From assembly GCA_000025185.1 (NCBI GenBank), contig CP001848.1:1560001-1592000 (forward strand): a DNA stretch of 32,000 nt, given 5' to 3'. This document shows, one piece after another, positions 6,891 to 30,018 of the stretch (position 1 is the stretch's first letter; every line of letters begins with the position of its first letter). Source of the DNA: Pirellula staleyi DSM 6068. GTDB taxonomy: Bacteria > Planctomycetota > Planctomycetia > Pirellulales > Pirellulaceae. Under the pieces are notes generated by a model. That model was not told where the DNA came from. It searched no databases and saw only the letters and a program-made list of their open reading frames with translations. Both the position numbers and the translations under genes were made by a program.

Positions 6891-7463
6891 ATGCAACGAC
6901 GAACTTTTCTCGAGGCAGCCGCTGCGACGGTCGCCATCGGCGTAGCAGCTTGTATGCATCCGGCAGACGCGCTGGCTGGGGATGTTCCGCTAGCTCGCGC
7001 GTATCGAGCGCCGGAGCTCGCCGAGATTGAAAAATTCTTTCATACGAAAGCGAGTTCGCTGAGGGAATTCCGGGGCCAAGTGGTAGCGCTCCATTTCTGG
7101 ACCTACTCCTGCAGCAACTGCCTGGCGAACTTGCCGCACTACGCACGGTGGCATCACGATTTTGCCGCAGCGGGGCTCGTGGTCCTGGGAGTACACACCC
7201 CTGAATTTTCGGAAGAAGCGAAAATCGAGAACGTTGCTGAGCAGCTACAAGCACTGAAGATCGAGTATCCTGTGGCGATTGACAACCAGTTTGCTACGTG
7301 GAAGCAGTGGAAGAATCGTTACTGGCCGACTGTCCATTTGATCGATCGTCGGGGGGATGTTCGTGCCACTTGGATTGGCGAGCTGAACTGGAAAGCGTCG
7401 CGCGGCGAAGTGACCATGCGATCGCGTATCGAGGCGCTGCTCAAAGAGCAGCGCGACAGCTGA
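6891..7463 (+). CDS. TlpA/redoxin-like thiol-disulfide oxidoreductase with Tat-type signal
   Basis: 190 aa. MQRRTFLEAAAATVAIGVAA signal. Thioredoxin-fold CxxC in FWTYSCSNCLANLPH. VLGVHTPEF and YWPTVHLIDRRG are typical of the TlpA/ResA-like family. Confidence 0.8.
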   Translation: MQRRTFLEAAAATVAIGVAACMHPADALAGDVPLARAYRAPELAEIEKFFHTKASSLREFRGQVVALHFWTYSCSNCLANLPHYARWHHDFAAAGLVVLGVHTPEFSEEAKIENVAEQLQALKIEYPVAIDNQFATWKQWKNRYWPTVHLIDRRGDVRATWIGELNWKASRGEVTMRSRIEALLKEQRDS

Positions 7464-7526
7464 CCCTCCGGTAGCAACCTTATTCACCCCACCCCGAGTA
7501 GCTTGATGTCGCGCTAGGCACTTCGT

Positions 7527-7862
7527 ATGGATTGCTCGAAATTCTACGAGAAAATCGACGAACTTCGCGAAAAGAAACTTTCGCGATGGGAGTGGATTTC
7601 GATGCGCCTGCACTGGCTGATTTGTGGCGACTGTCGCCGCTATTTGGCGCAGTACCTGAAGACGATCGCCATCGCGCACGGTCTGGCGGCGGCGGAATTG
7701 CCAGCTGCGAAATTGGCCGATCCGATCGTCGAACAAATCGCGCGTGAAATGACGCAAGCGGTGAGGTCGGGCGATGCGCCGCAAGATCCAGCGTTTGATC
7801 CAGCGAGCGATCGCGAAGAGGACTCGGATCAGTCAGGCTCGGAGGGGCCGCAGTTAACGTAG
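7527..7862 (+). CDS. Soluble zinc-finger (ZAS, HxxxCxxC) anti-sigma factor candidate
   Basis: 111 aa. MDCSKFYEKIDEL...RLHWLICGDCRRYLAQY gives C3, H29-x3-C33-x2-C36, the same Cys-to-His spacing I recall for RsrA-type ZAS proteins. No hydrophobic segment. Acidic disordered C-terminus. Confidence 0.6.
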   Translation: MDCSKFYEKIDELREKKLSRWEWISMRLHWLICGDCRRYLAQYLKTIAIAHGLAAAELPAAKLADPIVEQIAREMTQAVRSGDAPQDPAFDPASDREEDSDQSGSEGPQLT

Positions 7863-8091
7863 TTGTTTATCGATCACTCGATGGACCCGTAGCACTCGGT
7901 CTAGCGATCCATGTCAGGTGTTTTTGGGTGCCACTGGCGTCACGCCAGAGCAGCAGATGGAACCGATGTTTTGGGCAAAATGTCCCTGAAAACAGAGTCC
8001 ATTTACACTTCTCACTGGGGAGAGCCCAGTGGCACACTGGATTGAAGCCTTTTCATTGCTGCATGACATTGATTGCTAGACGGAGTAGTAG

Positions 8092-8117
8092 GTCAGGTCC
8101 CCTCTCAGGGACCTGAC
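8092..8117. terminator. Perfect 10-bp-stem hairpin between convergent genes (terminator-like, no U tract)
   Basis: gtcaggtccc (8092..8101), ctctca loop, gggacctgac (8108..8117). Lies between the ZAS gene (+) and the ECF sigma gene (-). Confidence 0.35.
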
Positions 8118-8201
8118 ACGAGAGGAGCATGGCACCCAGGCTCAACCCAGGTTTGGGCCAGTTTGCGATTCTGGTCTGGTAGAACCGGACCTACTACCAA
8201 G

Positions 8202-8864
8202 CTACGCGCTGCTCCCCTTCATCAGGGGCGTAAGGAGTGTGCGAAGCGCAGCACGCGCGCGATGCAGCCGCGTTTTCACTGCCCCTTCGCTGATTTCAAG
8301 GATGCGAGCCGTTTCAGCGGTGTCGAGTTCCTCGAGATCGCGCAGTAGTAAAATGCTCCGAAAATCGTCCGGGAGTCGATCGATGCACGAGCGGACTTGC
8401 TCGCGCGACTCTTCACTGCAGAGGAGTTCGAGCGGGCTCCGTTTCCAAGCGAGAACACCCCCCTGATGATGACCGGTGGCGTCGAAATGGGGGAGCAGCT
8501 CGTCGAGGCTCACTGTGGGTCGCCGCCGATTTTTCCGGAGCTTCATCAGACAGACGTTCACCGCAATGCGGTGGAGCCAGGTGCCGAGTTCAGCCTCGCC
8601 TCGAAAGTTGCCGAGGCCACGCGCTGCGGCGACAAACGTATCCTGCAGCGCATCGGCGGCATCGTCGTCGCGCCCGAGCATGCGCCGCGCTACGGCCAGC
8701 ACCTGCGCTCCATACTGGCGCACGAGCTGCTCGCTCGCCGCGCGGTCTCCACTGGCTATCGCGCGGGCTAGCTGCTGCGGTTCTCGATCGAGATCCCCTC
8801 GGCTCACAGCAAAACCCTTGGCAGAACTGACGAGCGACAGCAGATCGGTGCGAGAGGGGACCAT
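8202..8864 (-). CDS. ECF-type RNA polymerase sigma-70 family factor
   Basis: 220 aa. Region 2 (DALQDTFVAAARGLGNFRGEAELGTWLHRIAVNVCLMKLRK) and region 4 (LPDDFRSILLLRDLEELDTAETARILEISEGAVKTRLHRARAAL). Confidence 0.85.
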   Translation of the reverse strand: MVPSRTDLLSLVSSAKGFAVSRGDLDREPQQLARAIASGDRAASEQLVRQYGAQVLAVARRMLGRDDDAADALQDTFVAAARGLGNFRGEAELGTWLHRIAVNVCLMKLRKNRRRPTVSLDELLPHFDATGHHQGGVLAWKRSPLELLCSEESREQVRSCIDRLPDDFRSILLLRDLEELDTAETARILEISEGAVKTRLHRARAALRTLLTPLMKGSSA

Positions 8865-9117: not shown

Positions 9118-10107
9118 ATGAGTCAGTTATTACCCGACGATCAGCAGCAGTTAGAGCGCGAGGTGACCCCTCCGGAGCTCTATTTCTCACGTCGTAAGTT
9201 GCTCCAAGGAGCTGTCCTCGCGGGGACGCTGGTCGCCACCGGCGGCATCTATCGCGCGGCGTCGCATTCCGAGGAAGAGAAGGTCTCGAGCGAAGGGGTG
9301 ATCGAGCAGCTGGCCCGTCCCGATCAGTTTTCGGCCAGCGCTCTCGGACCCAGTGATGAACTGACCCCCGAAGAAACGATCATCAACTACAACAACTTCT
9401 ACGAATTCACGACCAGCAAGCAGGGCGTAGCGCGACTCGCACGCGATTTTCGCACCGACGGCTGGTCGATCAAAATCGATGGGCTTGTCGATAAGCCGCA
9501 AACGATTTCGCTCGACGATTTGATGTCGCTCGGTCCGGTCGAAGAGCGAATCTATCGCATGCGCTGCGTCGAAGCGTGGTCGATTGTGGTCCCTTGGGCA
9601 GGCATTCCACTCCATCGCTTGCTCGAAAAAGTTCAGCCGCAGTCGACTGCCAAGTATGTCGCGTTCGAAACCCTGTTTGATCCCGTGCGTATGCCGAATC
9701 AAAACTCGGGAGTGCTAGACTGGCCGTATCTCGAGGGCCTTCGACTCGACGAAGCGATGCATCCACTCACGCTGCTGGCGACCGGGCTCTACGGCAAAGC
9801 GATGCCGCCGCAAGATGGTGCGCCGGTGCGGCTCGTCATTCCGTGGAAGTATGGGTTCAAAGGGATCAAGTCGATCGTCCGCATTTCACTCACTGCGACC
9901 GAGCCGGTTTCGACCTGGAACCGGATGGCGCCGTATGAGTATGGCTTCTACGCCAACGTGAACCCCGAGGTACCTCATCCGCGCTGGAGCCAGGCGACCG
10001 AGCAGCGACTCGGAGAATTTGGACGTCGCGACACGCTGATGTTCAACGGCTATGGCGAGCAAGTGGCATCGCTCTACGAAGGGATGAACCTGGAAGTCAA
10101 CTTTTAG
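9118..10107 (+). CDS. msrP: Periplasmic protein-methionine-sulfoxide reductase, molybdopterin catalytic subunit MsrP (YedY)
   Basis: Near-colinear with E. coli MsrP as I recall it ([77 protein letters not shown]). Tat signal [13 protein letters not shown]. The track ORF starts at GTG 9082; ATG 9118 is preferred. Confidence 0.9.
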
Positions 10108-10220
10108 TAGCGGCTGTTTTTCTGGAGAAATACAGCAGAAAACGGCCTTTGCAGTGTTCCTTCGCAATGTTCCTTCGCTTCGTCTCTTTGCCCACCTAGC
10201 AGCTTCTGAAATTTGATCCG

Positions 10221-11978
10221 ATGAACGAACTTCGATTCTGGAAACTTGTGGTGATTCTCAACAGCGGAGTTCCGCTGGCGATCTTGGCTTGGGATGCCGC
10301 GCAAGGTTCGCTCGGCGCGAATGCCGTGAGCTATGCCATTCACACCACTGGCTACCTCTCGCTCTTGATGCTGATGTTCTCGCTGATGGTGACACCACTG
10401 CGCTGGCTCACCGGCTGGAACAGTGTGGTGGGAATTCGTCGCGCGCTCGGCGTGTATGCCTTCATCTATGCCGCTGTGCATTTGGCGATCTATTTTACGT
10501 TCGATCGTCAGATGAGCCTCGTGAGCACCGCGACGGAAATCGCGTCGCGCGTCTATCTGATGATTGGCTTTGCCGCACTCTTGCTGATGGCACCACTGGC
10601 GCTGACCTCCACCAGCGCGATGGTGGTCAGGCTTGGCGCGAAGAACTGGAAGCTGCTCCATCGACTCACCTACGTCGTGGCGATTTTGGGAGTGCTCCAC
10701 TTCTACTTGCTGGTGAAGGCCGACGTTGGTGAACCTGTTAGTTTCGCTGCTTTTCTCGCGGTTTTGCTCCTCGCGCGAGTCGTTTGGCCCTACCTCGATC
10801 TCGCACCGCGTCGCAAAAAGATGCTCGCTAAAAAGAGCCTTTCAGCAGAGCCCATGAGCACCGCTGTCAGCACACAGCGCGCGAAGACCAAGGCTTGGAG
10901 TGGCGAACTGGTGGTCGCTTCGATCACGCGTGAAACGCCGAGCGTGCAAACGTTTCGACTACAGCCGATCGAAGGTGGAACTTTGCCGTTTGAATTCGAG
11001 CCGGGTCAATTCCTATCACTCGCGATCGAGATCGCAGGGCGACGTCAGCGCCGGAGTTACACCATCGCCAGTTCCCCTCTCGAGCGCACATTCTGCGAGC
11101 TCACCATCAAGCGCGAAGAGCACGGCACTGTCTCGCGACATCTGCACGACAATCTGCAGCCGGGCGATCGACTGACAGTCACCGCGCCAGCTGGAAAATT
11201 TGTTTTCAGCGGCAAGAGCGCTACGTCTGTTGTGCTGATCGCCGGCGGTGTGGGAATCACCCCGCTGATGTCGATGGCGCGGTACTTAGTCCAGACGAAT
11301 TGGTCGGGCTCGATCGATTTTGTAATCGTCGCCAAGAGCGAAAAAGAGCTGATTTTCCGCCGTGAAATCGAAGCGATGCAGCGCACTTTTTCGCGTCTGC
11401 AGATTCATATTACTCTGTCGCAGGAGATGGACGATTCGAGCTGGAGTGGGAAGCAAGGACGACTCGAAGCGACGTGGCTCTCGTCATGCTGCGCAGATCT
11501 TCGTACGCGGCCGATCTATCTTTGTGGTCCTGATGGAATGATGCAGCAGACGCGCGAAATGCTCCTCGCGCTCGGTGTTCCGCCTGCTAATCTGCACCAA
11601 GAGGCGTTTACTTCCTCGAGTGCTCGCGCCGAAAAAATGGAGCTCGCGCCGGTCGCTGCATCGGCCGCGCGCATGGAACCTGCGCTCCCGACGTTCCTGG
11701 TCGATTCGCCAAGCGCCGAGCATCAAGTGCAGTTCGTGCGGCAGCAAGTGGCGGCCGATGTGCGCGACGATATCACCGTGCTCGAAGCTGCCGAATCGCT
11801 CGGGGTTGCGATCCCCTACGAGTGTCGCGCGGGGGTCTGCGGGCAATGCAAAGTGCGGCTGACGCACGGTCATGTCGCGATGGATTCGCAGTCCGCGCTA
11901 TCACCGCAAGAGAAAGCTTTTGGCTGGATTCTCGCCTGCCAGGCGACACCTCGAACCAATCTCGAAGTCGAGGTGTAA
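10221..11978 (+). CDS. msrQ: MsrQ (YedZ, ferric-reductase-like haem b membrane domain) fused to an FNR-like FAD/NAD(P)H reductase and a C-terminal plant-type 2Fe-2S ferredoxin
   Basis: Residues 1-190 align with E. coli MsrQ, including His87/His147/His160 at the 60- and 13-residue spacing of its haem ligands. Residues ~226-465 carry RRSYTIAS (RxYS FAD motif) and GGVGITP (NAD(P)H motif). Residues ~500-585 carry C535-x4-C540-x2-C543-x29-C573. Confidence 0.85.
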   Translation: MNELRFWKLVVILNSGVPLAILAWDAAQGSLGANAVSYAIHTTGYLSLLMLMFSLMVTPLRWLTGWNSVVGIRRALGVYAFIYAAVHLAIYFTFDRQMSLVSTATEIASRVYLMIGFAALLLMAPLALTSTSAMVVRLGAKNWKLLHRLTYVVAILGVLHFYLLVKADVGEPVSFAAFLAVLLLARVVWPYLDLAPRRKKMLAKKSLSAEPMSTAVSTQRAKTKAWSGELVVASITRETPSVQTFRLQPIEGGTLPFEFEPGQFLSLAIEIAGRRQRRSYTIASSPLERTFCELTIKREEHGTVSRHLHDNLQPGDRLTVTAPAGKFVFSGKSATSVVLIAGGVGITPLMSMARYLVQTNWSGSIDFVIVAKSEKELIFRREIEAMQRTFSRLQIHITLSQEMDDSSWSGKQGRLEATWLSSCCADLRTRPIYLCGPDGMMQQTREMLLALGVPPANLHQEAFTSSSARAEKMELAPVAASAARMEPALPTFLVDSPSAEHQVQFVRQQVAADVRDDITVLEAAESLGVAIPYECRAGVCGQCKVRLTHGHVAMDSQSALSPQEKAFGWILACQATPRTNLEVEV

Positions 11979-12719: not shown

Positions 12720-13160
12720 TTAGGCCTCTTCGCCCCGCGCTGCCAGGCAGGCGATCAGCTTGCGCAGCAAGCGCGCCATGGCATTGCGATCGGCGGAGGA
12801 GAGATCGTCGTAAAGTGCGGTCACCGCGCCATGTTCGCTCGACAGCAGAATCTGCTTGCAGACCGATTTTCCGTTGGGAGTGAGGTGAATCATCGTCGCC
12901 CGCCGATCGGTGGGGTGAGCTGCACGGAGCACCAGCCCCTCTCCTTCCAGGGCATCGACCAGCTTGGTGATACTGCGTGGAGTTACGCCAAGTTGCACGC
13001 CGAGGTCGCTCATTTTCAGCGATCCCTCGCAGCTCAGGGCCAGCAGCAAACGGGCTCGGGCGGGAGTGGTGCCGGTGTGCTCGAGCTGTTTGGCTAGCCA
13101 GCGTGTGTAGGCTTTTCCAAAGCGTCCCATCATGGCAGCGAGCTCAGCAGAGTCGGTCAT
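12720..13160 (-). CDS. MarR-family transcriptional regulator
   Basis: 146 aa. Winged-helix block MSDLGVQLGVTPRSITKLVDALEGEGLVLRAAHPTDRRATMIHLTPNG. AAGGAA Shine-Dalgarno 5 nt upstream of the ATG. Confidence 0.85.
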   Translation of the reverse strand: MTDSAELAAMMGRFGKAYTRWLAKQLEHTGTTPARARLLLALSCEGSLKMSDLGVQLGVTPRSITKLVDALEGEGLVLRAAHPTDRRATMIHLTPNGKSVCKQILLSSEHGAVTALYDDLSSADRNAMARLLRKLIACLAARGEEA

Positions 13161-13238: not shown

Positions 13239-13311
13239 CAATATCCGCCAAGACCACTACTTGGCTTTCCCCTCACGGCGTGCGTCTGCACGCCAGACTT
13301 TGGAGTTTGTC

Positions 13312-15222
13312 ATGCCCGATCCCTTCAAGCAAGCTCCCAGTGTGGCAGGGGCCGAAAACCGCGAAAGTAGCCAAAAAATCCCAGAAAACCAGGTGTCGAG
13401 TGATCTGAGCACGAGTGCGCCGCAAGAATCGACGCAGCTAGCTTCGCACACGCCGCGCCTCTGGCCCGCCGTGGTGATCGTCGCGCTACTCTGGGTCGCG
13501 CGGATCGTGGCCAGCACCGTTTTCTCCGGAACTCCGACCGAGTTCATGACTATGCTCTTCGCGCCGATGGCGGCGACCGTGGTCCTGTTTTTGTGGTGGC
13601 TTGGGCTCTCGAAGCTCGCTTGGATCGACCGCCTGTGGGGCATCTTCATCGTGGTCATCGTTGGCGCGATTGCCGGTCAGCTGATCGATAAGTCGATGCC
13701 GCTCGGGATGGTGATGTTTGCGCTGCCGGTGGTGCTGACGATCGTCGTGGCCTGGCTTGTGGTAACGCGCGGCGCGAACTCGTGGAACCATCGCGCGGGG
13801 CTGGCGCTGGTGACTTGTTTAGCGTGGGGCTACTTCACGCTGCTGCGCGTCGATGGTATCGATGGCCACATGAACGTCGATACGCGCTATCGCTGGGAGC
13901 CGACAGCCGAATCGGAGTTTCTCGCGCAGCAAACGAAAACGGCGAGCCCCCCTGCTCTTCCGGCTGCCAGTGCAAACGCGCCTGTAACGCTCGTGGCCAC
14001 GGAGTCCGATTGGCCCGAATTTCGAGGGAAAAACCGTGATTCCCGCCGCGCGGGGGTGATGCTCGCAACCGACTGGAGCAAGTCGCCACCCAAACAACTC
14101 TGGCGACAATTGATCGGTCCCGGGTGGGGCTCGCTGGCAGTCGTCGGCAACTATGTCTTCACGCAGGATCAGCGCGGCGAGAACGAAGCGGTGATCTGTC
14201 TCGATCTTGCGACCGGCAAAGTCCGGTGGCTGTTTGAGCATCCAGCCCGTTTTTGGGAAGTGGTGGCGGGAGCTGGTCCACGCGCCACGCCGACGTTCCA
14301 TGAAGGTCGACTCTACACCTTCGGCGGTAGTGGCAAACTGCATTGCCTCGAAGCTGCCACCGGTGCCGTCATCTGGTCGCGCGATGTCGCGGCAGACGCC
14401 AAGGCCACCGCGCCGCAGTGGGGCTTTTCAAGCTCGCCACTCGTCTTCGAAGGAGTCGTTTGCGTCTTTGCCGGTGGAAGCGAAAACAAGTCGCTGATGA
14501 CCTACGATGCACTTTCGGGCGAGCCCCTCTGGTCGGCTGGCAGCGGCGTGCTGAGCTACAGTTCTCCCCACGCAGCCACGCTGCATGGCCGCTCGCAAAT
14601 TCTGTTTGCCAGCGAACTCGGACTCGAAGCGTACGAACCCAAAACCGGCAAGCTCCTGTGGAATCATCCTTGGAAGCTCGAAGGGATGGCCCGCGTGGTT
14701 CAGCCGCACTTGCTCCCGGGGAACAAAATCCTGATCGGCACCGGCTATGGCAACGGCACGATGCTGATCGAACTCAAACACGACGGCGAGACCTTCACCA
14801 CTGTCGAAGGTTGGCTGACGAAAGAGATGAAGCCTTACTTCAACGACTTTGTGTCGCGCGATGGTGTGCTGTATGGTTTCGACGGCGCGATCTTCGGTGC
14901 GATCGATCTGGCGACCGGCGATCGGCTCTGGAAAAAGGGACGCTACGGGCACGGGCAAGTGCTGCTGGTCGAGCCGCAGGGACTGCTCGTGGTAATTTCC
15001 GAAACCGGTGATCTCGTGCTGCTGGAAGCCAGCGCCGAGAAACATATCGAGCTGGCGAAGATCCGCGCACTTACAGGGAAGACCTGGAACCATCCGGTGC
15101 TGGTCGGCAACAAGCTGCTGCTCCGCAACGGAACGGAAGTCGCCTGCTACGAGCTCGCCACTCAGCCCGCCGAGCTGTCGGCTGTTTCAACCAACGCTGA
15201 GGCACCCCGATCCGCGCGGTAG
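13312..15222 (+). CDS. Polytopic membrane protein with C-terminal PQQ-like (BamB-type) beta-propeller domain
   Basis: The track ORF starts at TTG 13261. ATG 13312 has GGAG 9 nt upstream. About 5 hydrophobic helices in the first 210 aa. Then DWPEFRGKNRDSR and repeated W-containing propeller blades (VICLDLATGKVRW, HCLEAATGAVIW, YDALSGEPLW, YEPKTGKLLW, IDLATGDRLW). Confidence 0.75.
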   Translation: MPDPFKQAPSVAGAENRESSQKIPENQVSSDLSTSAPQESTQLASHTPRLWPAVVIVALLWVARIVASTVFSGTPTEFMTMLFAPMAATVVLFLWWLGLSKLAWIDRLWGIFIVVIVGAIAGQLIDKSMPLGMVMFALPVVLTIVVAWLVVTRGANSWNHRAGLALVTCLAWGYFTLLRVDGIDGHMNVDTRYRWEPTAESEFLAQQTKTASPPALPAASANAPVTLVATESDWPEFRGKNRDSRRAGVMLATDWSKSPPKQLWRQLIGPGWGSLAVVGNYVFTQDQRGENEAVICLDLATGKVRWLFEHPARFWEVVAGAGPRATPTFHEGRLYTFGGSGKLHCLEAATGAVIWSRDVAADAKATAPQWGFSSSPLVFEGVVCVFAGGSENKSLMTYDALSGEPLWSAGSGVLSYSSPHAATLHGRSQILFASELGLEAYEPKTGKLLWNHPWKLEGMARVVQPHLLPGNKILIGTGYGNGTMLIELKHDGETFTTVEGWLTKEMKPYFNDFVSRDGVLYGFDGAIFGAIDLATGDRLWKKGRYGHGQVLLVEPQGLLVVISETGDLVLLEASAEKHIELAKIRALTGKTWNHPVLVGNKLLLRNGTEVACYELATQPAELSAVSTNAEAPRSAR

Positions 15223-15259
15223 TTGGCTGGTTATCGAGCCACGAATCGTTACCCGCGAG

Positions 15260-15286
15260 CTGCCGATTTCGCTGCAGAATCGGCAG
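15260..15286 (+). terminator. Hairpin downstream of the beta-propeller gene (weak terminator candidate)
   Basis: ctgccgat (15260..15267) pairs with atcggcag (15279..15286) across an 11-nt loop. No adjacent U tract. Confidence 0.3.
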
Positions 15287-16084
15287 AAAGTCGATGAAAT
15301 TTTCGTAATCATCGCCGAAGCCCAAAACTGAATGGAAACTTAAGCACCATTGCCTCAAAAGGGGTAGAGCCTTCGCTAGGGCTGCGAGTGGTCGTGTTTA
15401 GTCAATTCTTACGTTGTCGTAACCTCCGTAGCCCGGTTTTGACCCAATCACCCAGTTTTGGGGTTAATAACTCCGTCGGGTGATAGAAGCAGTCTCTGTG
15501 GGCATCTGAATCGCGTTTTGAACTCCCCAATGGTGCGGTTTCCCGGCTGGCTTCCTGATAGCTGGTTCTAATCTGCGTACCGGCGAGCGGTCGACCGCTC
15601 AATTCCGCGCATTTCGCTCCCTGGGTTTTGCAGCGAAATACAACAGCCTAGTTGTGGGGCCATAATTCCCATTGAAAAAATCTTGACAAACCCGTGGCCT
15701 TCCCTGCCTTCTAAGGGTAGAATCAGTGACATAGGACATGAGAGAAGGGCTACGGCTGTGCTGCTGGTGAACCGGCGAGTGAGTTGTCGCTACGGGAAAA
15801 TCAGACGGCACTAGCCACTCTGGTCGATGATCGATCGTGTCTTACCATTTCACCGTTTTGCTCTCGACCGGAACATCGAGCGCAACAGCAGGTGAATGTT
15901 TTTAGCGACCTTGGCTCCTATCCAAGTTCGTTAATCTGTTGCCCCCAACACCTCTCCCCTCTTAGCTACGCGCTGCAAAGTGCGTGCACTTATACGTCCC
16001 TTTTTCAGGGGTGGGTGCGGGGTGTGATTGGCATGTCGCGGTGTTCGTTTTCATTCATTTTCTTGATTCGAGGATGGTGTCTCT

Positions 16085-17086
16085 ATGTTGAATCGTTCGC
16101 AATGGATCAGCCGCAAAGGTTTCACACTCGTCGAACTGCTCGTGGTGATCGCGATCATCGGCGTGCTCGTGGCTTTGCTCCTCCCAGCTGTGCAGGCCGC
16201 TCGCGAAGCAGCCCGCCGCAGCCAGTGCTCGAATAACCTGAAGCAAATCGGCATCGCGCTGCACAACTTCCACGACACCTTCGGCAAGTTTCCCGTCGGT
16301 GCCATCGACGACGACAATCGCAGCTTCGCTTGGCGCACCTACATCCTTCCCTACGTCGAACAGACCGCCATGTACGACCAACTGGTCGCCCAAGGTCTCT
16401 ACATTCCACCAAACATGGGTGGATCGGACACGCCGAATGTCGACGGTTTCAACACCATCAACAACTTCGTCGAAACCAATATCGGCGACTCGACCAACAC
16501 GGTGGTCGGCACGCTGATGAAGACCAAGATGGCCTTCTACACCTGCCCTTCGGACGTCCTGCCACAGTTCGACAACAACGGCTACGGCAAAGCTAACTAC
16601 TGCGCCAGCGTTGGTCCGAACGTCGACCCAACCAACTGGGCCGGCTGCGCTGTGCTCAAGGGTGATCGTCTCGGTGGCATCATGGTTCCATCGAACGACA
16701 ACGTGAAGAACTACCCCAGCACGTTTGCTTCGATCATCGATGGCTCGAGCAACACCATCATGGTGGGCGAAGTGACCGAGTCGGAAGCTGTTCGCACCAA
16801 CAACACCGGTGACGGACGCTACCCCATCTGGCCAGGTGGAAACAACAACGGCGGTTGCAACGGTGTGAACGGCTCGGGTGCCGTGTTCCGTGCCACCGAC
16901 GCAGCCTACTTCATCAACCGCAAGGTTGGCGATGAATCGAACATGAGCTTCGGCAGCAAGCACCCCAACGGTGCCATGTTTGGCCTCGGCGATGCTTCGG
17001 TTCGCTTCGTTTCGCAAACGATCGACAGCACGGTGTACTACGCTGCTGGTACCAAGGCTGGTGGCGAGTCGCTGCAACTCCCTTAG
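16085..17086 (+). CDS. DUF1559 (H-X9-DG) protein with prepilin-type N-terminal cleavage/methylation domain
   Basis: [54 protein letters not shown] is the hallmark planctomycetal DUF1559 N-terminus. C-terminal [22 protein letters not shown] lies 10 nt upstream of the ATG. Confidence 0.9.
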
Positions 17087-17219
17087 TCCTCTGATCGTCG
17101 GTACTGCTTAAAAAACCAACCAGTCCCCAGCGTCGATTCGTTCGGCACTGGGGATTTGGTCTTGGATACCCTCCACTCTCCCCACAGTTGATCTGGTTTA
17201 CTACGAATTGAGCTTTGTC

Positions 17220-17657
17220 ATGCGGAACTATTTGAATCGGTCGCGCGTCGGTTTGTTGATGGTGGCACTGGTGGCTCTGGCAGCCGTGGGCTGCGGCAGC
17301 GGCACCAGCGGAGTCTCGGGCAAAGTGACCATGAATGGTCAGCCTGTCACCGGTGGATCGCTCACCTTTTCCCCCATTTCCTCGGGTGGCACCGATGCGG
17401 GGAAGCCAGCCGCTGGGAATGTGCAAGCCGATGGCTCGTACGTGCTTGGCACCGACTCGGAAAAAGATGGCGCTGCTGCGGGTCGCTACAAAGTTCTCTA
17501 CTCGGCCCCTGCGGCCAAGTATCCCGATGGTGTCGAGCCCCAGCCAGGCATGCAGCCCACCTACTCTCCCTTCCAAAACATGGTTCCCAAGACCGCTGAA
17601 GTGGAAGTGAAGTCGGGCTCGAACACGATTGATATCGAACTCGTTCCACCGCAGTAG
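17220..17657 (+). CDS. Small lipoprotein, carboxypeptidase-regulatory-like partner of DUF1559 proteins
   Basis: ATG 17220 gives MRNYLNRSRVGLLMVALVALAAVG|C (lipobox). The GKVTMNGQPVTGGSLTF...DGSYVL pattern is typical of these partners. Confidence 0.7.
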   Translation: MRNYLNRSRVGLLMVALVALAAVGCGSGTSGVSGKVTMNGQPVTGGSLTFSPISSGGTDAGKPAAGNVQADGSYVLGTDSEKDGAAAGRYKVLYSAPAAKYPDGVEPQPGMQPTYSPFQNMVPKTAEVEVKSGSNTIDIELVPPQ

Positions 17658-17709
17658 TGGTTTGCAGCGTGCATGCTTTGGCTCGCACGCGCGAATGCTC
17701 TGAAACATG

Positions 17710-17742
17710 AAAGACCTGCGGGGCAACTCGCGGGTCTTTTTT
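17710..17742 (+). terminator. Rho-independent terminator
   Basis: gacctgcg (17713..17720) pairs with cgcgggtc (17729..17736), with one G.U pair, across an 8-nt loop. Followed by TTTTTT (17737..17742) and preceded by an A-rich run, so it may work in both directions. Confidence 0.7.
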
Positions 17743-17888
17743 ATTGCGCGGCTGTAGTAGCAATCCCCCTCCGCTCGGACAAGAAACGGAACAGCTCCGG
17801 GCAATCTTGTCGCAAGATCGCCGGAGCTTCGAGTTCGTGCTACGCGGCAGCTGTGTGGGATGCAGAGCTGCTAGAGGCAGTGCTGCGT

Positions 17889-18245
17889 TTAGCGGCTTCC
17901 GGGGGTGCAGCCCGGAGCAGCGCACTTGAGCCATGGCGAGCAAGGGAGCTTGGGCATGCAGACCACTGGTTTGCAGCAGTAGTCGTTGCAGACAAACTGC
18001 GAATTGCCACATGGAATCGCCGGCACGCATTTGCGGCAATAGTCGTCGCAAACGTAGTTTGTCGTCGGGCACGGAATGACCGGCGGGCACTTGGGACAGT
18101 AGTCGTCGCAGCAAGTGCGTGGAGTAGGGCACGGGAGACAAATCGCAGGACCGCGACGTATCTCGGCACTGGCAAAGCTGGCCACCACGAGCAGACCGAG
18201 GATCGGTACTGCCTGAAGGAGTCGCTGGATCGGCTGATGAAACAT
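17889..18245 (-). CDS. Secreted cysteine-rich repeat protein (CDDYCxKC repeats)
   Basis: The track ORF extends to 18452. ATG 18245 gives the signal peptide MFHQPIQRLLQAVPILGLLVVASFASA. 18 Cys in about 90 mature residues. Three ~20-aa repeats: CDDYCPKCPPVIPCPTTNYV / CDDYCRKCVPAIPCGNSQFV / CNDYCCKPVVCMPKLPC. Third codon positions are G/C-rich in this frame. The competing plus-strand ORF would run through the terminator at 17710. Confidence 0.55.
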   Translation of the reverse strand: MFHQPIQRLLQAVPILGLLVVASFASAEIRRGPAICLPCPTPRTCCDDYCPKCPPVIPCPTTNYVCDDYCRKCVPAIPCGNSQFVCNDYCCKPVVCMPKLPCSPWLKCAAPGCTPGSR

Positions 18246-18460
18246 ACTTGCGCCACATCTATCGCGAGGGGATGGGAATCGACAGCCGCGCGGGATTGGT
18301 TTTCGCTCGACCGCCGCACCAACAACACTGAACAAGCTCTTCGCTATCGTCTCCCCACGTTCAAGCGAAAGTGGGGCTGGAAGCGTTTTCCCTGTGCGGC
18401 CCAGTCGCTGGTATCGACCGAGCCACTCACTTTTTAAGCGTCCGACTACCAATCGACCGA

Positions 18461-20086
18461 CTACTCCAGTTCGTCGACCGGTGGAACGGGTGGAACGGCG
18501 GGGCGTGGTTCCATCTCTTCCATCTCTTCCATTTCCATCATCGGTGGTGGCAAACGCTCGATCATGTTAGGCATGGCGTAAGGCATCGGTTGACGGAAGC
18601 GAATTTCCCAGCCGCCACCCATCGCCTTGTAAATTTGCACCATGCTCTTCGCCACGTTCCCTTGCGAAGTGGCATACTCATCTTGCTGCTGCACGAGGAG
18701 CGTTTCGAGATCGAACACCTGGGTGTAGTCGACCTGTCCTTTATCTTCCTTCTGGTTCACCACGCGGACCGCTTCCTGAGCATAGCCCACGCTCTCTTCC
18801 AGTTTGTCGCGCTGCATTTGGTAGCGGAGGAACGAGACAATGGCGTTTTCAGCCTCTTCGTTCGCCACGAGCACCGTCTGCTGATAGGCGGCGATACGCT
18901 GTTCGAGAATCGCGTCTTGCACCGACACCAGGTTGCGGAGGCGACCATAGTTCAGCACATTCCAGCGGAAACCAGGTCCGACCGAACCTTGCCAGGCGTT
19001 CGGGGCAAACAGGTTGGGGAACTGCGATGCTTCCATCGTCAGCGCACCGTTGATCGAGATCGTGGGATAGAGATCGGTCTGAGCGATACCAATTTGTTCC
19101 GACTGGGCAGCGACGAGTCGCTCGGCGCGGCGCACATCGGGACGACGACGGAGCAGCGAAGCAGGGACATCGAGCGTGACCGTATCACCCACCTTCGGCA
19201 CACCCCTGGAAGGCCCGAGGATGTAGCTCAGATCGTGCGGAGGCATTCCCAGCAGCACCGCCAGGCGGTTCTGCGTTTGACGTTTCGCGAGCTCGAGTAG
19301 GTGGACAGCCGCCTCGGTGCGCGTGAGGTTAGCAAGCGACTGTGGCGCGTCGATTTCGCTGTTGATCGCTTCCGCTTTCTTGCGGGCGACACGAATGTCA
19401 GCACTACGCTTTTGCTGCTGGATATTCGTCAGAGCGTAGTCGATGCGCTGTTCGAACGTGCGATAGTCGATGTAGGCCGACGCAGTTTCGGCGATCAGCA
19501 GCACGAGGGCATCGTCGTATGCTTCGATCGACGCATCGAGGTTGGCATCGGCTGCTTCGATCGAGCGGCGATAGCGTCCCCAGAAGTCGAGTTCCCAGCC
19601 GATAGCGCCACCGAGCGACCAGTTGTCGTAGTTGGTGACGAGCAGCCCTGGGGGCAACGCACCACCCTGCGGAAACGTGGCGGTTTGTTGGCTACGCTGT
19701 AGACGCGCGTAATCGCCCGTCAGCTGCTGCGATTGGGGCCAGAGGTTGCCAGCCACTGCGGATCGCATGGCTTGCGACTCGGCGATACGGAAACCAGCTT
19801 CGCGGATCGAGATGTTCTGCTGATAGGCGATTTCGATGACAGCATCGAGTCGTTTATCGTTGAACACCTTCCACCAGTCGGCGCTGAGCATTTCGCCGCG
19901 CTGGACCTTGGGGTTGTAAGAATCGATCCAGTCGTTGGAGACTGGGGCTGCCGGCTTGGCATAGTTGGGGCCAACTTTGAAGCCGTTGCGGAAGTAGCTA
20001 CCGATGCCGGTGCAGCCGCTGCTCGTGGTCAGGACCACGGCTAGCAAGAGCCCGACGAGGCATGAATTGAACGAACGGGAGAGCAT
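18461..20086 (-). CDS. RND efflux outer-membrane factor lipoprotein (NodT/TolC family) with Met/Glu-rich C-terminal extension
   Basis: Lipobox LTTSSG|C. OMF-typical blocks (DLYPTISINGA, YKAMGGGW). AGGAGG Shine-Dalgarno upstream of ATG 20086. About 45 extra residues follow the GGGW end motif. Confidence 0.85.
   Translation of the reverse strand: MLSRSFNSCLVGLLLAVVLTTSSGCTGIGSYFRNGFKVGPNYAKPAAPVSNDWIDSYNPKVQRGEMLSADWWKVFNDKRLDAVIEIAYQQNISIREAGFRIAESQAMRSAVAGNLWPQSQQLTGDYARLQRSQQTATFPQGGALPPGLLVTNYDNWSLGGAIGWELDFWGRYRRSIEAADANLDASIEAYDDALVLLIAETASAYIDYRTFEQRIDYALTNIQQQKRSADIRVARKKAEAINSEIDAPQSLANLTRTEAAVHLLELAKRQTQNRLAVLLGMPPHDLSYILGPSRGVPKVGDTVTLDVPASLLRRRPDVRRAERLVAAQSEQIGIAQTDLYPTISINGALTMEASQFPNLFAPNAWQGSVGPGFRWNVLNYGRLRNLVSVQDAILEQRIAAYQQTVLVANEEAENAIVSFLRYQMQRDKLEESVGYAQEAVRVVNQKEDKGQVDYTQVFDLETLLVQQQDEYATSQGNVAKSMVQIYKAMGGGWEIRFRQPMPYAMPNMIERLPPPMMEMEEMEEMEPRPAVPPVPPVDELE
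18480..18535 (-). repeat. Short in-frame 9-bp tandem repeats inside the OMF tail
   Basis: ggtggaacg x2 (18480..18497, encoding PVPPVP) and ttccatctc x2 plus ttccatttc (18509..18535, encoding EMEEMEEME). Confidence 0.8.
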
Positions 20087-20250
20087 CCTTGCCCCCTCCT
20101 TGGTACGCGTAAGTGGCTGCCGATCCCTGGCGCCACCGATTTAATGCACACACAAGGAAGGATCGGCACACTAGGCACGATCGGATTACTAGGAACGGGG
20201 GGCACCGGTCAGTCTCGCTCACCGGAGCAGCAGGAATCTCCGGCAAAGTT

Positions 20251-20285
20251 TGCCTCGCGAGAGTTGTTGAGCCTCTCGCAAGGCA
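20251..20285 (-). other. Strong intercistronic stem-loop between the RND and OMF genes
   Basis: 13-bp stem, 9-nt loop. The single mismatch is C-A on the plus strand but G.U on the minus-strand transcript, which suggests it functions as RNA in the operon sense. Confidence 0.45.
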
Positions 20286-20296
20286 GTTTGTAGCGA

Positions 20297-23200
20297 TTAG
20301 TGCGTCGCTTTTGCGCTAGCGATGGCAGGTTGTGCTGGTTGTTTGGCTTGCGCGGGCTCTTCCGTAGCGACAACCCGCGGCGAGAGCCATTCGCTCAAGC
20401 CTTGGAAGAGGACGTAGAAGATCGGCACAAAGAACACGCTGAGGACTGTCGAGGCGATCATGCCGCCGAACACCGCCGTGCCGAGCGCCCGCTGACCAGC
20501 GGCACCAGCTCCTTCGGCAATCACCAGTGGCACCACACCCAGGATGAACGCGAACGAGGTCATCAGAATCGGCCGGAAACGCATCCGGGCTGCTTCGACC
20601 GAGGCCTCGACGATCGACTTGCCTTGGTGCCGCAGTTCGCGCGCGAATTCGACGATCAGAATGGCATTTTTGCTCGCCAGGGCGATGATCAGCACGATGC
20701 CGATTTGCGTGTAGAGATTGTTGTCGAGTCCAAGGATCGAAACGGCAGCGATCGCGCCGAGCAGACCGAGTGGCACGACCAGAATCACCGCAATTGGCGT
20801 GATCCAGCTTTCGTACTGCGCGGCGAGCACCAGGTAGACCAGCAGCACCGCCATCACGAAGATGCCGATCGCTTCGTTACCGACCCGCTTCTCTTGGTAG
20901 CTCATGCCGGTCCATTCAAAGCCGATCGACTGCGGCAGTTTTTCGTCGGCAATCGACTCGAGCAGTTTCAGCGAATCCCCTGAGCTGAACCCAGGGGCCG
21001 GTTCGCCACCGACCGAGGCGCTGGGATAGAGGTTGTAGCGCGTGATCGTTTGCGGACCAAACACCGGCTTCACCGCCGCGAGCGTACTCATCGGCACCAT
21101 CTTGCCACTGCTGCTGCGCACTTCCAAACGCAAGATATCTTCGGGCTCGGCCCGAAACTGCGGCTCGGCTTGCACGCGGACTTGATACGTCCGGCCGAAC
21201 TTGTTGAAGTCGTTGACGTAGCTCGAACCGAGATAGGCTTGCAAAGTGCCGAACACATTTAGCAGCGGCACGTCGAGGCTCTTCACTTTCACACGATCGA
21301 CTTCGATGAACAGCTGCGGCACACCAGGGCGGAAGGTCGATCGAATGCTGGCGAGCGAAGGATTCTTCATCCCCTCGTCGATCACTTCCTGCATGGCGGT
21401 TTGAAGTTCGTTGAGACCGACGTCGGCCCGGTCTTGCACCTGCATTTCGAAGCCACCTCGCACACCGAGGCCACGAATTGCCGGAGGGGCAAACGGGAAG
21501 ATCACCGCCTCGTCGATCTCGGCGAATTTGGCCCCCATCATCCCCATGATTTCGTTGAGCGATTGGCCCTCGTGCTGCAGCCGCTCCTCCCAGTTGTCGA
21601 GCGTGACGAAGAGGGTGCCGGCATTCGACGCGGTGCTGTTATCGAGCAGCGACAAACCACCGATCGAGATCCAGTCGGCGACGCCAGGAATCGAAGCGAG
21701 CTTGTCGTCGATTTGACGCATCACCGATTTAGTGCGCTCTTGCGAGGCAGCATCGGGGAGCTGCACGGCGACGAACAGGTAGCCTTGATCTTCGGTAGGC
21801 AAGAAGCCGGTGGGAACGCGGGTGTACCACCAGCCAGTGAGCAAAACGAGCGCGACAAACGCCACCACCACGAGCGCCATTTGGCGGAGCAGTCCACCGA
21901 CGATCCAGATGTAAACGTTTTCGCAGTGGCCATAAACATAGTTAAAACCACGGAAAAAGATGTTCTTCTTGCCGGTTGGTGGCCGGAGCCACAAAGCACA
22001 CTGCGCTGGTTTGAGGGTGACGGCGTTGATGGCCGAGATCACCGCCGTGGCGGCAATGGTGAGGGCGAATTGCCGGTAGAGCTGGCCGGTGATGCCGCTC
22101 ATAGCAGCGCTCGGAATGAACACCGCGAGGAGCACCAGCGTGATGCCGATGATCGGCCCGAGCACTTCATCCATCGCGCGGATCGTTGCCTGTTTGGGCT
22201 TCTCTCCTTTTTCGATGTGATGCGCGGCGTTTTCGACAATCACGATCGCGTCGTCGACCACAATGCCGATCGCCAGCACGAGTCCAAACAGTGTGAGCAT
22301 GTTGACCGAGAACCCGAGCCACGCCATCGCCGCAAAGGCACCGATGAGTGTCACCGGCACGGTGGTCGCAGGAATCAAAACCGCGCGCCAGTCTTGCAGG
22401 AAGACCAGGATCACGATCAGCACCAGCACGCCCGCTTCGAGAAGTGTTTTGTAAACTTCGTGAATCGAGGCTTCCACGAACTTGGTGGTGTTCAGCGGCA
22501 TTGTGTACGAAACGCCTTGCGGAAACGACTTCGCGAGTCGCTCCATGGCATGCTCGACTTCGGTCGTCACTTCGAGGGCGTTGGCGCCGGGAAGCTGGAA
22601 GATACCGATGTTGGCGGTCGGTGCCCCTTGCTTCAGGTTGAACTGATCGTAACTCTGAGCGCCGAGTTCGACCCGGGCGACATCTTTGAGGTAGGTGAGT
22701 CGACCATCTTCTCCCGTTTTAACGACGATATTCTCGAACTGCTCGGGCCGGTTGAGACGACCGAGCGTGCTGACGGTGTACTGAAACGCGAGGGCATTTT
22801 CCGCCACCACCGGAGGCTGACCCACCTGCCCTGCTGCCACTTGCACGTTTTGCTCGGCGACAGCCGCTTGCACATCTTGCACCGTCAGGCCGCGAGCGCG
22901 GAGCTGATCGGGATCGAGCCACAATCGCATGCTGTAGTTGCCGGTGCCGAACACCGTCACTTCACCCACCCCCTTCACGCGGCTGAGTTCGTCGCGAATG
23001 CGGAGCGTGGCGTAGTTGGCTAAAAACAGGCTGTCGAGCTCGGGCTTATCCGAGGCGAGCGTGATCACCAGCAGCAGCGCTGCCGACTGTTTTTTCACGG
23101 TCAAACCTTGGCGTTTGACCTCTTCGGGCAAGAGCGCTTCGGCCGACGAGACACGGTTTTGCACGAGCACTTGGGCATCGTCGAGATTCGTGCCGATTTC

Positions 23201-23485
23201 GAAAGTGACTGTCAGGGAGTACGAACCGTCGCTCGACGAGGTGCTCGACATGTAGAGCATATTCTCGACGCCGTTCACCTGCTGTTCGATCGGCGCAGCG
23301 ACGGTGCTGGCCACCACTTGCGCATCGGCGCCGGGATAGACGCACGTCACACGAACTGTCGGCGGAGTGATTTCGGGGTACTGTTCGACAGGCAAACGCC
23401 ACAGCGCAACGCCGCCGATCACCATCGTGAGGATGGCGATCACATTGGCAAACACAGGATGGTCGATGAAGAATCGCGAGAACAT
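20297..23485 (-). CDS. RND efflux transporter permease, AcrB-like (HAE1-type)
   Basis: 1062 aa. The N-terminus MFSRFFIDHPVFANVIAILTMVIGGVALWRLPVEQYPEITPP parallels AcrB. Twelve-TM architecture with two large periplasmic loops. Confidence 0.95.
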   Translation of the reverse strand: MFSRFFIDHPVFANVIAILTMVIGGVALWRLPVEQYPEITPPTVRVTCVYPGADAQVVASTVAAPIEQQVNGVENMLYMSSTSSSDGSYSLTVTFEIGTNLDDAQVLVQNRVSSAEALLPEEVKRQGLTVKKQSAALLLVITLASDKPELDSLFLANYATLRIRDELSRVKGVGEVTVFGTGNYSMRLWLDPDQLRARGLTVQDVQAAVAEQNVQVAAGQVGQPPVVAENALAFQYTVSTLGRLNRPEQFENIVVKTGEDGRLTYLKDVARVELGAQSYDQFNLKQGAPTANIGIFQLPGANALEVTTEVEHAMERLAKSFPQGVSYTMPLNTTKFVEASIHEVYKTLLEAGVLVLIVILVFLQDWRAVLIPATTVPVTLIGAFAAMAWLGFSVNMLTLFGLVLAIGIVVDDAIVIVENAAHHIEKGEKPKQATIRAMDEVLGPIIGITLVLLAVFIPSAAMSGITGQLYRQFALTIAATAVISAINAVTLKPAQCALWLRPPTGKKNIFFRGFNYVYGHCENVYIWIVGGLLRQMALVVVAFVALVLLTGWWYTRVPTGFLPTEDQGYLFVAVQLPDAASQERTKSVMRQIDDKLASIPGVADWISIGGLSLLDNSTASNAGTLFVTLDNWEERLQHEGQSLNEIMGMMGAKFAEIDEAVIFPFAPPAIRGLGVRGGFEMQVQDRADVGLNELQTAMQEVIDEGMKNPSLASIRSTFRPGVPQLFIEVDRVKVKSLDVPLLNVFGTLQAYLGSSYVNDFNKFGRTYQVRVQAEPQFRAEPEDILRLEVRSSSGKMVPMSTLAAVKPVFGPQTITRYNLYPSASVGGEPAPGFSSGDSLKLLESIADEKLPQSIGFEWTGMSYQEKRVGNEAIGIFVMAVLLVYLVLAAQYESWITPIAVILVVPLGLLGAIAAVSILGLDNNLYTQIGIVLIIALASKNAILIVEFARELRHQGKSIVEASVEAARMRFRPILMTSFAFILGVVPLVIAEGAGAAGQRALGTAVFGGMIASTVLSVFFVPIFYVLFQGLSEWLSPRVVATEEPAQAKQPAQPAIASAKATH

Positions 23486-23495
23486 ATTCCGCTTA

Positions 23496-24908: not shown

Positions 24909-25297
24909 GGAACATTCCTTCGGTGGACCTCGCCGCGCCAGCATCTCGTCGAGCGGCTTGCGCGGTCCCATCACCAGCACGAAACAGATTTCGCAGAACG
25001 TCGCCGAGTTCGTCAGCTTCACGACCCGCCCTGAAGAGACGCACACGCCCTATCGGTGCGCATGGCTGCTACGAGCGATAGTCGTGTGGCAGTCCGGCCG
25101 ATCGACAAATCCTTGCGAGCACCCTTGCAGCTAGATCGACGCGGCGTGATGTGTCACGAGCGCGAGAAGCTGTAGCGATCGCGGAGACTCTGTGGAGTAT
25201 CGGCAGGATTCGTTTAGGAAGCTAACGATTAGCGTCCGCACGATTTTAGTTAACCTACTCCCCCAAAGGCAAGAGATTTTCTGCGCTACGCAGTAAA

Positions 25298-25321
25298 GAA
25301 AAGCGGCCAGCCGCACTTTTC
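25298..25321 (-). terminator. Candidate terminator downstream of nrdB
   Basis: gaaaagcggc pairs with gccgc(a)cttttc (10 bp, one bulge). On the minus strand the GC core is followed by TTTTCTTT. A second hairpin, ctgcg-cta-cgcag, lies at 25281..25293. Confidence 0.4.
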
Positions 25322-25634
25322 CGGCGATTGACGACTCCAAAACGAAGAGGGAGCCGCTCGGCAAAGGTTCGGGGCTGATGCACAGCCAGCCGCCAGTTGT
25401 CAGGAGGCTCGGCTGGCTTGGAAACGTGCTGGCGGACTGCCAGGATGACAGTAAGTGTTTTTCATTATTCGACTTAGGGCGTTTTCTGCTAGGTTTCTGG
25501 CCGCTCCGCCAGATTGCGCCTATTAATAGGTCTCGCTTTAAGTCAGCCACTCCCCTGGGAAATGGCTGACCCACGATCGACCGCCTGCAAATGCTACAAG
25601 CTGTGTAGCAGATGCTCCTCCAACACTCCGCTAA

Positions 25635-26729: not shown

Positions 26730-26776
26730 AACTCGTAAATAGATGTGGACTAATAAGGTACAAATTCAAAGATAAA

Positions 26777-26837
26777 TCTTGAGAAAATGCGCACTTGTTG
26801 CGCAAAAACTGCGCACAAATGGCTCAAGAGAAGCGCA
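26777..26837 (-). repeat. Phased TGCGCA hexamer array enclosed by a 7-bp stem in the nrdA-nrdB spacer
   Basis: TGCGCA at 26788, 26799 and 26810 (exact 11-bp period), and AGCGCA at 26832 (2 x 11 further). tcttgag (26777..26783) pairs with ctcaaga (26823..26829) and encloses the three perfect copies. Confidence 0.5.
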
Positions 26838-26867
26838 GTAAGTCTGTAGAACTTTGGCCGCTCGGAT

Positions 26868-29994: not shown

Positions 29995-30018
29995 GACAGC
30001 ACAACTAATTGGGTTCGA

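Follow-up and report, generated by a model that had tools for sequence, protein, structure and literature searches.

In this study, we analyzed a 32,000-nt stretch of the Pirellula staleyi DSM 6068 genome (assembly GCA_000025185.1, contig CP001848.1, positions 1,560,001 to 1,592,000 of the forward strand; hereafter the window, numbered from its own first nucleotide), and focused on one gene at 10221–11978 of the plus strand, which joins an MsrQ-type haem-binding membrane domain to a flavin reductase of the FNR type and a plant-type [2Fe-2S] ferredoxin domain (Fer2). We read its product as a self-sufficient MsrQ, that is, one polypeptide that would carry electrons from NAD(P)H in the cytoplasm through the inner membrane to MsrP, the methionine-sulfoxide reductase of the periplasm, and assign this reading a probability of about 0.7. 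An earlier sequence-only reading had proposed the same three-part fusion with a Cys4 2Fe-2S domain at this place, and Pfam, the NCBIfam model NF003831 and the cofactor motifs all agree with it; its further proposal of an NAD(P)H-fed MsrQ with an iron-sulfur relay toward MsrP is backed computationally by a conserved architecture, invariant motifs and an msrP neighbor in 79 of 80 loci.

Domain architecture of the fusion protein

The gene is one uninterrupted open reading frame (ORF) with an ATG start, encoding 585 amino acids (aa) with zero internal stop codons. Together with its upstream neighbor, it comprises the following features, all on the plus strand, in which flavin adenine dinucleotide is abbreviated as FAD and the AlphaFold2 (AF2) confidence measure, predicted local distance difference test, as pLDDT.

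9118–10107, + strand: msrP, periplasmic molybdopterin methionine-sulfoxide reductase (NCBIfam NF003767, identity to the E. coli protein)
10108–10220, + strand: msrP–msrQ spacer, 113 bp (sequence read, terminator scan)
10221–10832, + strand: MsrQ/YedZ-type six-helix membrane domain, aa 1–204 (NF003831, alignment with E. coli MsrQ, AF2 helices 3–206)
10833–10886, + strand: linker 1, aa 205–222, basic, disordered and variable (pLDDT <50)
10887–11210, + strand: FAD-binding beta-barrel, aa 223–330, with R278-x-Y280-T281 (Pfam FAD_binding_6, pLDDT >90)
11211–11609, + strand: NAD(P)H-binding Rossmann domain, aa 331–463 (Pfam NAD_binding_1, motifs, Foldseek)
11610–11711, + strand: linker 2, aa 464–497, disordered Ala/Ser/Pro-rich tether (pLDDT 31–45)
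11712–11978, + strand: plant/PDR-type [2Fe-2S] ferredoxin domain, aa 498–585, and stop codon (Pfam Fer2, plant ferredoxins in the PDB)

Four Pfam domains were found in succession: Ferric_reduct at residues 43–158 (E 4.5e-16), FAD_binding_6 at 231–328 (E 3.7e-15), NAD_binding_1 at 339–445 (E 5.2e-16) and Fer2 at 508–577 (E 4.4e-19). The FAD motif, previously described as RxYS, reads R278-S-Y280-T281 and is therefore RxYT, its S/T variant, and the GGxGxxP motif claimed alongside it is present as G342-G-V-G-I-T-P348, accompanied in the NAD domain by C435-G-P437 and E461-x-F463. The predicted cluster ligands, Cys535-x4-Cys540-x2-Cys543-x29-Cys573, follow the plant/PDR-type pattern, and plant ferredoxins in the PDB match this domain at E ~1e-13. 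AlphaFold2 modeling with a 121-sequence alignment produced three confident modules with a mean pLDDT of 85: the transmembrane (TM) part (1–204), the FNR part (223–463) and Fer2 (498–585). Because the reductase half comes after TM6, which ends on the cytoplasmic side in the ferric reductase domain (FRD) fold, and the linker following TM6 carries the basic stretch PRRKKMLAKK, the reductase half is predicted to be cytoplasmic.

The membrane domain as a predicted one-haem MsrQ

Residues 3–189 scored 145.4 bits against the MsrQ equivalog NF003831 (cutoff 130). The domain is 32% identical to E. coli MsrQ, and the haem ligands and the residues of the flavin mononucleotide (FMN) pocket are identical in the alignment: R73, R74, H87, L126, S130, W143, H147 and H160 correspond to E. 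coli R77, R78, H91, L131, S135, W147, H151 and H164, respectively. In the E. coli protein, the haem is ligated by H91 and H164 alone, the cytosolic FMN pocket is formed by R77, R78, L131, S135, W147 and H151, and a quinone of unclear role is also carried (Carpentier et al., 2025, PMC12525009). The putative haem ligands of the fusion are thus H87 and H160, which are invariant in 121 family members and 80 genomic copies, and its predicted FMN pocket consists of R73, R74, L126, S130, W143 and H147. The three histidines H87, H147 and H160 are spaced exactly as H91, H151 and H164 of E. coli (gaps of 60 and 13), as the sequence-only reading had noted, while its assignment of all three as haem ligands gives way to two ligands and one FMN-pocket His (PMC12525009). 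One genomic copy among loci L005–L084 has Gln at the H147 column (E. coli H151), a residue also found there in STEAP.

At its first position TM3 carries Arg, not His, so that R73-x13-H87 replaces H-x13-H. Bacterial long-form FRDs carry all four His, and YedZ and STEAP stand out by an Arg where these have the first His (Zhang et al., 2013, PMC3591440); by this token, the Arg-for-His exchange would mark a one-haem MsrQ and not a two-haem NOX. With 585 aa and the FNR and Fer2 modules added, the protein is not a stand-alone MsrQ of ~200 aa either, and the fusion family appears to be a long form whose membrane domain is of the one-haem YedZ type. The generalization that a reductase-bearing long-form FRD has four His and two haems is broken by this family.

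Linkage to msrP and conservation across phyla

The ORF upstream of the fusion was identified as msrP by a score of 452.3 bits against NF003767 (cutoff 207) and by 61% identity to E. coli MsrP across 257 aa. The mechanical ORF call starts with GTG at 9082; the alternative ATG at 9118 (MSQLLPDD...) is the likelier start, judging from a 98%-identical locus (L087) whose 329-aa call matches it, and the twin-arginine signal SRRKLL lies downstream of both candidates. Located on the same strand and 113 bp upstream of the fusion, msrP forms with it the operon arrangement expected of MsrQ. The terminator scan found no terminator-like hairpin in the 113-bp spacer, and the promoter/terminator scan performed at chance level.

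At least 120 full-length homologues were retrieved (E-values 0 to 1e-167), which puts the feature well outside anything expected by chance, and all of the 120 top matches share the same four Pfam domains at 96–100% coverage. One of these, from an independent sequencing run, is 98% identical, and the rest of the top 120 are 46–62% identical. Clustering at 50% collapsed the close family to ~15 representatives; the fusion family is compact and well conserved, not huge. A genomic survey, counting one genome per species and tallying phyla by record titles, yielded 80 full-length copies from at least five phyla: Planctomycetota (44), Myxococcota (14), Verrucomicrobiota (8), Acidobacteriota (6) and Fibrobacteria (1), the remaining few being metagenome-assembled genomes (MAGs) labeled as proteobacterial or Bacteroidota. 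Cultured carriers among the Planctomycetota include Planctopirus hydrillae and Aquisphaera insulae. The phylogenetic survey of the architecture that the sequence-only reading had called for thus covers at least 80 species-level genomes, and its rationale that the arrangement suits an organism with an atypical envelope does not hold, as Myxococcota, Verrucomicrobiota, Acidobacteriota and Fibrobacteria carry this fusion too. In 79 of the 80 loci, the gene immediately upstream, in the same orientation, encodes an MsrP homologue, with a median gap of ~41 nt, and the sole exception has just 86 nt of upstream sequence present. The same adjacency was seen in loci L002, L003, L087 and L095.

Conservation was evaluated in an alignment of the 121 family members and, separately, in 79 independently extracted genomic copies. 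In both, the cofactor residues (the MsrQ set, RxYT, GGVGxTP, CGP, ExF and the four Cys) were kept at or near 100%, and the MsrQ-domain residues were retained in 79–80 of the 80 genomic copies. Identity across the family is 43–55% within the modules and 13–18% within the linkers (18% in linker 1, 13% in linker 2), whose lengths range over 16–72 and 22–52 aa, respectively. The three modules are about equally conserved and therefore under comparable constraint, with none decaying.

These data also bear on the possibility that the fusion arose from faulty assembly or sequencing, or represents a pseudogene in decay, in which msrQ was joined to a neighboring reductase gene. A frameshift or stop dividing the domains, which the earlier reading had named as evidence to the contrary, is absent from the window; in addition, the 98%-identical copy comes from an independent run, and 79 independent full-length copies align colinearly across the two linkers and show no change at the cofactor residues. 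Disrupted copies do exist elsewhere, such as one that lost its FAD-binding segment (L086, described below). On the strength of the intact frame, the independent near-identical copy and the 79 colinear copies, we rejected this explanation, which is effectively refuted.

In a neighbor-joining tree of the TM domain, built without support values, all 80 fused proteins fall in one clade, with only two of the 115 stand-alone MsrQs inside it. Both are true stand-alone proteins, each preceded by msrP. The tree tentatively points to a single ancient fusion that was occasionally lost. When the TM domain was searched by itself, only stand-alone MsrQs came back, which gives no fused-to-standalone ratio.

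Several aberrant loci were encountered. Locus L086 (5001–6751 on a 265-kb contig) holds a 250-aa MsrQ ORF, a 174-nt gap and a 274-aa NAD-plus-Fer2 ORF, with the FAD-binding segment lost; we considered it as a two-gene version consisting of MsrQ and a separate NAD/Fer2 protein, and rejected this, the lengths of the three parts being those of a disrupted fusion. In L002 (4982–5967 of an 8.3-Mb planctomycete MAG), msrP is called as two ORFs of 173 and 155 aa, which suggests a frameshift or a long-read error. Protein P0125 (L085, 131–1075) is a 314-aa variant in which MsrQ is joined directly to a Cys4 Fer2 and the whole FNR module is cleanly absent. It is preceded by the C-terminus of an MsrP on a single 4.2-kb metagenomic contig, and could be either a real MsrQ–ferredoxin form or an assembly deletion; as a sequence, it hints that Fer2 might be the module contacting MsrQ.

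Affiliation of the reductase half

The best NCBIfam matches of the reductase half are GbcB, PaaE and Hcr. Against the Fre equivalog NF005963 it scored 85.7 bits (cutoff 230), and the match to PDB entry 1qfj reached only E 1.4e-10. Foldseek matched the FNR part to the FNR modules of flavohaemoglobin, PDR and NqrF, and aligned PDR (2pia) through the FNR and Fer2 parts over 370 columns. The FNR module is therefore flavohaemoglobin/BenC/PDR-like and not a Fre orthologue. The proposal that the E. coli partnership of MsrQ with Fre is hard-wired in this protein accordingly survives insofar as an FNR-type reductase is fused, and fails insofar as that reductase is not Fre, to which it is analogous, not orthologous.

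The nearest non-MsrQ relatives of the reductase half (P0263, P0264 and P0267; 40–48% identity) begin with a signal-peptide-like N-terminus and a periplasmic segment without Pfam match, which in P0264 contains the Met-rich stretch MLMMMQMMHGG, followed by one TM helix and then FNR–Fer2. The same cassette thus occurs on single-pass membrane proteins and is therefore reused on different membrane anchors.

Four-histidine relatives of the same layout

An exhaustive search also found more divergent proteins of FRD–FAD–NAD–Fer2 layout, which the alignment divides into two groups. In P0288, P0317, P0335 and P0374, a His occupies the E. coli Arg77 position, and H-x13-H in TM3 with H-x12-H in TM5 gives them the NOX/bFRE signature of four His and two haems. 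Arg-Arg stands at the Arg77 position in the window protein, P0309 and P0320, which makes these three MsrQ-type. The neighboring genes divide along the same line: msrP accompanies the Arg-Arg type, being located 4 nt upstream of P0309 (L095) as well as upstream of the window gene, while msrP is missing next to P0288 (L091–L093), whose neighbors are a TonB-dependent receptor and a BlaR/Penicillinase_R pair. The P0288-type group is probably an iron-uptake reductase.

A sister group of this kind lends some color to the view that the window protein is itself a NOX-like or ferric-reductase-like enzyme, with O2 or extracellular Fe(III)/Cu(II) as acceptor and the msrP neighborhood incidental. The Pfam name of its membrane domain, 'Ferric reductase like transmembrane component', and an additional match to NAD_binding_6 point in the same direction. 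However, the window protein fails the NOX/bFRE signature, as Arg at the first TM3 position predicts one haem; it passes the MsrQ equivalog cutoff; and msrP is adjacent in nearly every locus across phyla. The TM3 Arg signature and the msrP synteny led us to reject this view, which we regard as very improbable.

Proposed electron path and points against it

In FNR–Fer2 reductases of the PDR/BenC type, electrons pass from NADH to a flavin, then to [2Fe-2S] and on to a partner protein. By analogy, the self-sufficient MsrQ would take a hydride from NAD(P)H onto the FAD of its FNR-type module, from which single electrons would move to the tethered [2Fe-2S] domain. Swinging on its flexible linker of 22–52 aa, Fer2 would hand the electrons to the cytosolic FMN pocket of the MsrQ domain, from which they would reach the single, periplasm-facing haem b and finally the Mo-molybdopterin of MsrP, exported by the twin-arginine translocation (Tat) route. 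The sequences themselves establish the domain architecture, the conserved cofactor motifs, the one-haem TM3 signature, the position of the reductase after TM6 and the msrP adjacency; from these we infer the cofactor occupancy, the order FAD to 2Fe-2S to FMN, the nucleotide preference and the output in methionine sulfoxide (Met-O) repair, and we hold the exact order of steps with less certainty than the overall function.

The redox potentials of the E. coli system fit a path of this kind: ~−340 mV for the FMN and ~−250 mV for the haem of MsrQ, with the Mo centre of MsrP at ~−250 mV, matching the haem, and NADH/Fre reduces both the FMN and the haem of MsrQ in vitro (PMC12525009). Potentials of −340/−250 mV therefore require a low-potential cytosolic donor and argue against a quinol donor (PMC12525009), so that the statement that MsrQ takes electrons from quinol, which the sequence-only reading repeated, belongs to an older and now disputed model.

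An alternative keeps the NAD(P)H-driven MsrQ feeding MsrP and moves the 2Fe-2S cluster off the path: FAD would reduce the flavin/haem site of MsrQ directly, as in NOX and STEAP, and the ferredoxin would lie on a side branch, serving for instance as a sensor of redox state or oxidants that gates activity, or as an outlet to another acceptor such as an MsrQ-bound quinone. We consider this unlikely, since electrons are known to leave for the partner via the cluster in every characterized FNR–Fer2 reductase, and the closest structural matches of the fusion are of the PDR/BenC class. Moreover, none of the four Cys varies among 200 sequences, and one variant (P0125) retains Fer2 while dropping the FNR module. 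In favor of the side branch, NOX/SpNOX-type FRD–FNR proteins work without an Fe-S cluster, Foldseek aligns the TM and FNR parts of the fusion to SpNOX (8qt6), Fer2 hangs on a long disordered linker, and the E. coli MsrQ carries its quinone (PMC12525009).

Several points weigh against the self-sufficient, NAD(P)H-driven MsrQ that we prefer. First, the reductase would be dispensable in some lineages, because two stand-alone MsrQs nest within the fused clade, and the MsrQ-plus-Fer2 variant P0125 rests on one metagenomic contig. Second, the reductase half stays below every specific NCBIfam equivalog cutoff (GbcB, 246.6 versus 500 bits; PaaE, 190.5 versus 420.8; Hcr, 184 versus 383). Third, because the FNR module is not orthologous to Fre, the mechanism of E. 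coli Fre, in which FMN itself is exchanged, may not apply to the fusion. Fourth, the AlphaFold2 model has a predicted template modeling score (pTM) of only 0.50, which makes the relative domain placement, docking geometry and cofactor distances unusable. Finally, the functional statements on the fusion are drawn from sequence, synteny and homology.

Comparison with known systems

Like E. coli MsrPQ with Fre, the system in the window has an msrP–msrQ operon and a proposed supply of cytosolic NAD(P)H via an FNR-superfamily flavoprotein; unlike there, the reductase is covalently part of the same chain, brings an RxYT FAD site of its own and is followed by an added 2Fe-2S domain, which would imply a fixed one-electron relay in place of the FMN exchange proposed between two proteins in E. 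coli MsrQ/Fre. Juillan-Binard in 2017 and Caux in 2021 are said to have described E. coli MsrPQ with Fre as a two-component 'NOX-like' system.

Bacterial and eukaryotic NOX and other long-form FRDs (SpNOX, CsNOX) are likewise single chains in which a six-helix FRD at the N-terminus precedes the cytoplasmic FAD and NAD(P)H domains, and Foldseek aligned ~470 columns of the fusion to SpNOX (8qt6/8qq7). They differ in having four His and two haems, whereas the window protein has Arg73, would bind one haem next to a flavin pocket, and would have MsrP and not O2 as partner. With PDR-type reductases (PDR 2pia, PaaE, Hcr, GbcB and the reductase part of CYP116B), the fusion shares the flavin–NAD–Fer2 order, RxYS/T, GGxGxxP, CGP and CX4CX2CX29C; in contrast to them, it is anchored in the membrane by MsrQ, its NAD-to-Fer2 linker is ~40 aa long and disordered, not short, and the presumed acceptor is a fused membrane cytochrome, not a soluble oxygenase. 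STEAP2–4 resemble it in combining a one-haem FRD with a TM3 Arg, a cytosolic flavin pocket and an NADPH-binding domain in the same chain, but have an N-terminal F420-type dehydrogenase, no Fe-S cluster and a metal-ion acceptor. Pfam gave no match to an N-terminal F420-type NADPH oxidoreductase domain in the window protein, whose reductase is of the C-terminal FNR type. The 'MsrQ-like' proteins of actinobacterial ApbE/flavinylation gene clusters, which end in an NAD_binding_1 domain (Meheust 2021, PMC8238504), are similar in their fusion of PF01794 to an NAD-binding domain and in an inferred use of cytosolic NAD(P)H; unlike the window protein, they are described as two-haem and are linked to ApbE/FMN-binding proteins or VIT1 and not to MsrP, with no Fer2 reported.

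Fused FRD–FNR proteins are known, SpNOX being an example (PMC5676040, PMC11031084, PMC11564096), and FRD proteins with an added Fer2 have been on record since 2013, as model M8 of Zhang 2013 (PMC3591440). Hajjar 2017 screened for a pair of bis-His motifs (four His and two haems), a criterion also used by Zhang 2013 (PMC5676040, PMC3591440). Homologues of the fusion carry the automatic JGI name 'ferredoxin-NADP reductase/DMSO/TMAO reductase YedYZ heme-binding membrane subunit', and full-text literature searches returned no description of an MsrP-linked, one-haem MsrQ fused to FNR–Fer2. As its domain layout is already catalogued in databases, we rate the MsrP-linked form as an uncharacterized variant of a known system and not as a new kind.

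Genomic neighborhood in the window

The msrP/fusion operon is surrounded, at 6891–8864 and 12720–13160, by envelope-stress-type genes. These encode a secreted TlpA/ResA-like thioredoxin-fold protein (6891–7463, +), a small ORF with an HxxxCxxC anti-sigma motif (7527–7862, +; 38.5 bits against NF052368, under the cutoff of 50), an extracytoplasmic function (ECF) sigma factor divergent from msrP (8202–8864, −) and a MarR regulator (12720–13160, −). An ECF sigma gene also adjoins msrP in L086, where it lies upstream on the same strand, and in L087, and a Redoxin/AhpC-TSA gene is found upstream in L002 as in the window. We considered ECF sigma and redoxin genes as neighbors of the core system and rejected them, as only 8 of 80 loci (ECF) and 5 of 80 (redoxin) had one by tblastn, a search insensitive for ECF sigmas.

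Further downstream (13261–30047), the gene content looks typical of planctomycetes, with a PQQ/BamB-like beta-propeller protein that has an N-terminal membrane region (13261–15222, +), a DUF1559/N-methyl prepilin-like protein (16085–17086, +), a resistance-nodulation-division (RND) efflux operon with OEP, AcrB and HlyD components (18461–25046, −) and the large subunit of a class I ribonucleotide reductase with an ATP-cone (26868–30047, −). Long antisense ORFs, for example at 10104–10700 (−), are the usual artefacts of high GC content.

Implications for the electron supply of MsrPQ

E. coli genetics reportedly pointed to quinols as the donor of MsrPQ. The redox potentials published in 2025 speak against quinols and favor the soluble reductase Fre, whose role in vivo is unproven and whose proposed mechanism, an FMN swap from one protein to another, is unusual (PMC12525009), and the donor is thus disputed. 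In this dispute the fusion is independent comparative evidence for the cytosolic NAD(P)H route, because a bona fide MsrQ is found fused to an NAD(P)H/FAD/2Fe-2S module, in several phyla and beside msrP. It also offers a single-polypeptide system for the reconstitution, spectroscopy and structure determination of the entire route between NAD(P)H and MsrP; to our knowledge, there is no MsrQ structure so far. On balance, we lean slightly toward a broader interpretation, in which the fusion family may serve as 'Rosetta-stone' evidence that MsrQ-type proteins physiologically draw their electrons from cytosolic NAD(P)H via an FNR-type flavoprotein and not from the quinone pool, and may represent the first use of an iron-sulfur relay in the NOX/STEAP/MsrQ superfamily, combining FAD, [2Fe-2S], FMN and haem b in one polypeptide that would link NAD(P)H to a molybdoenzyme in the periplasm.

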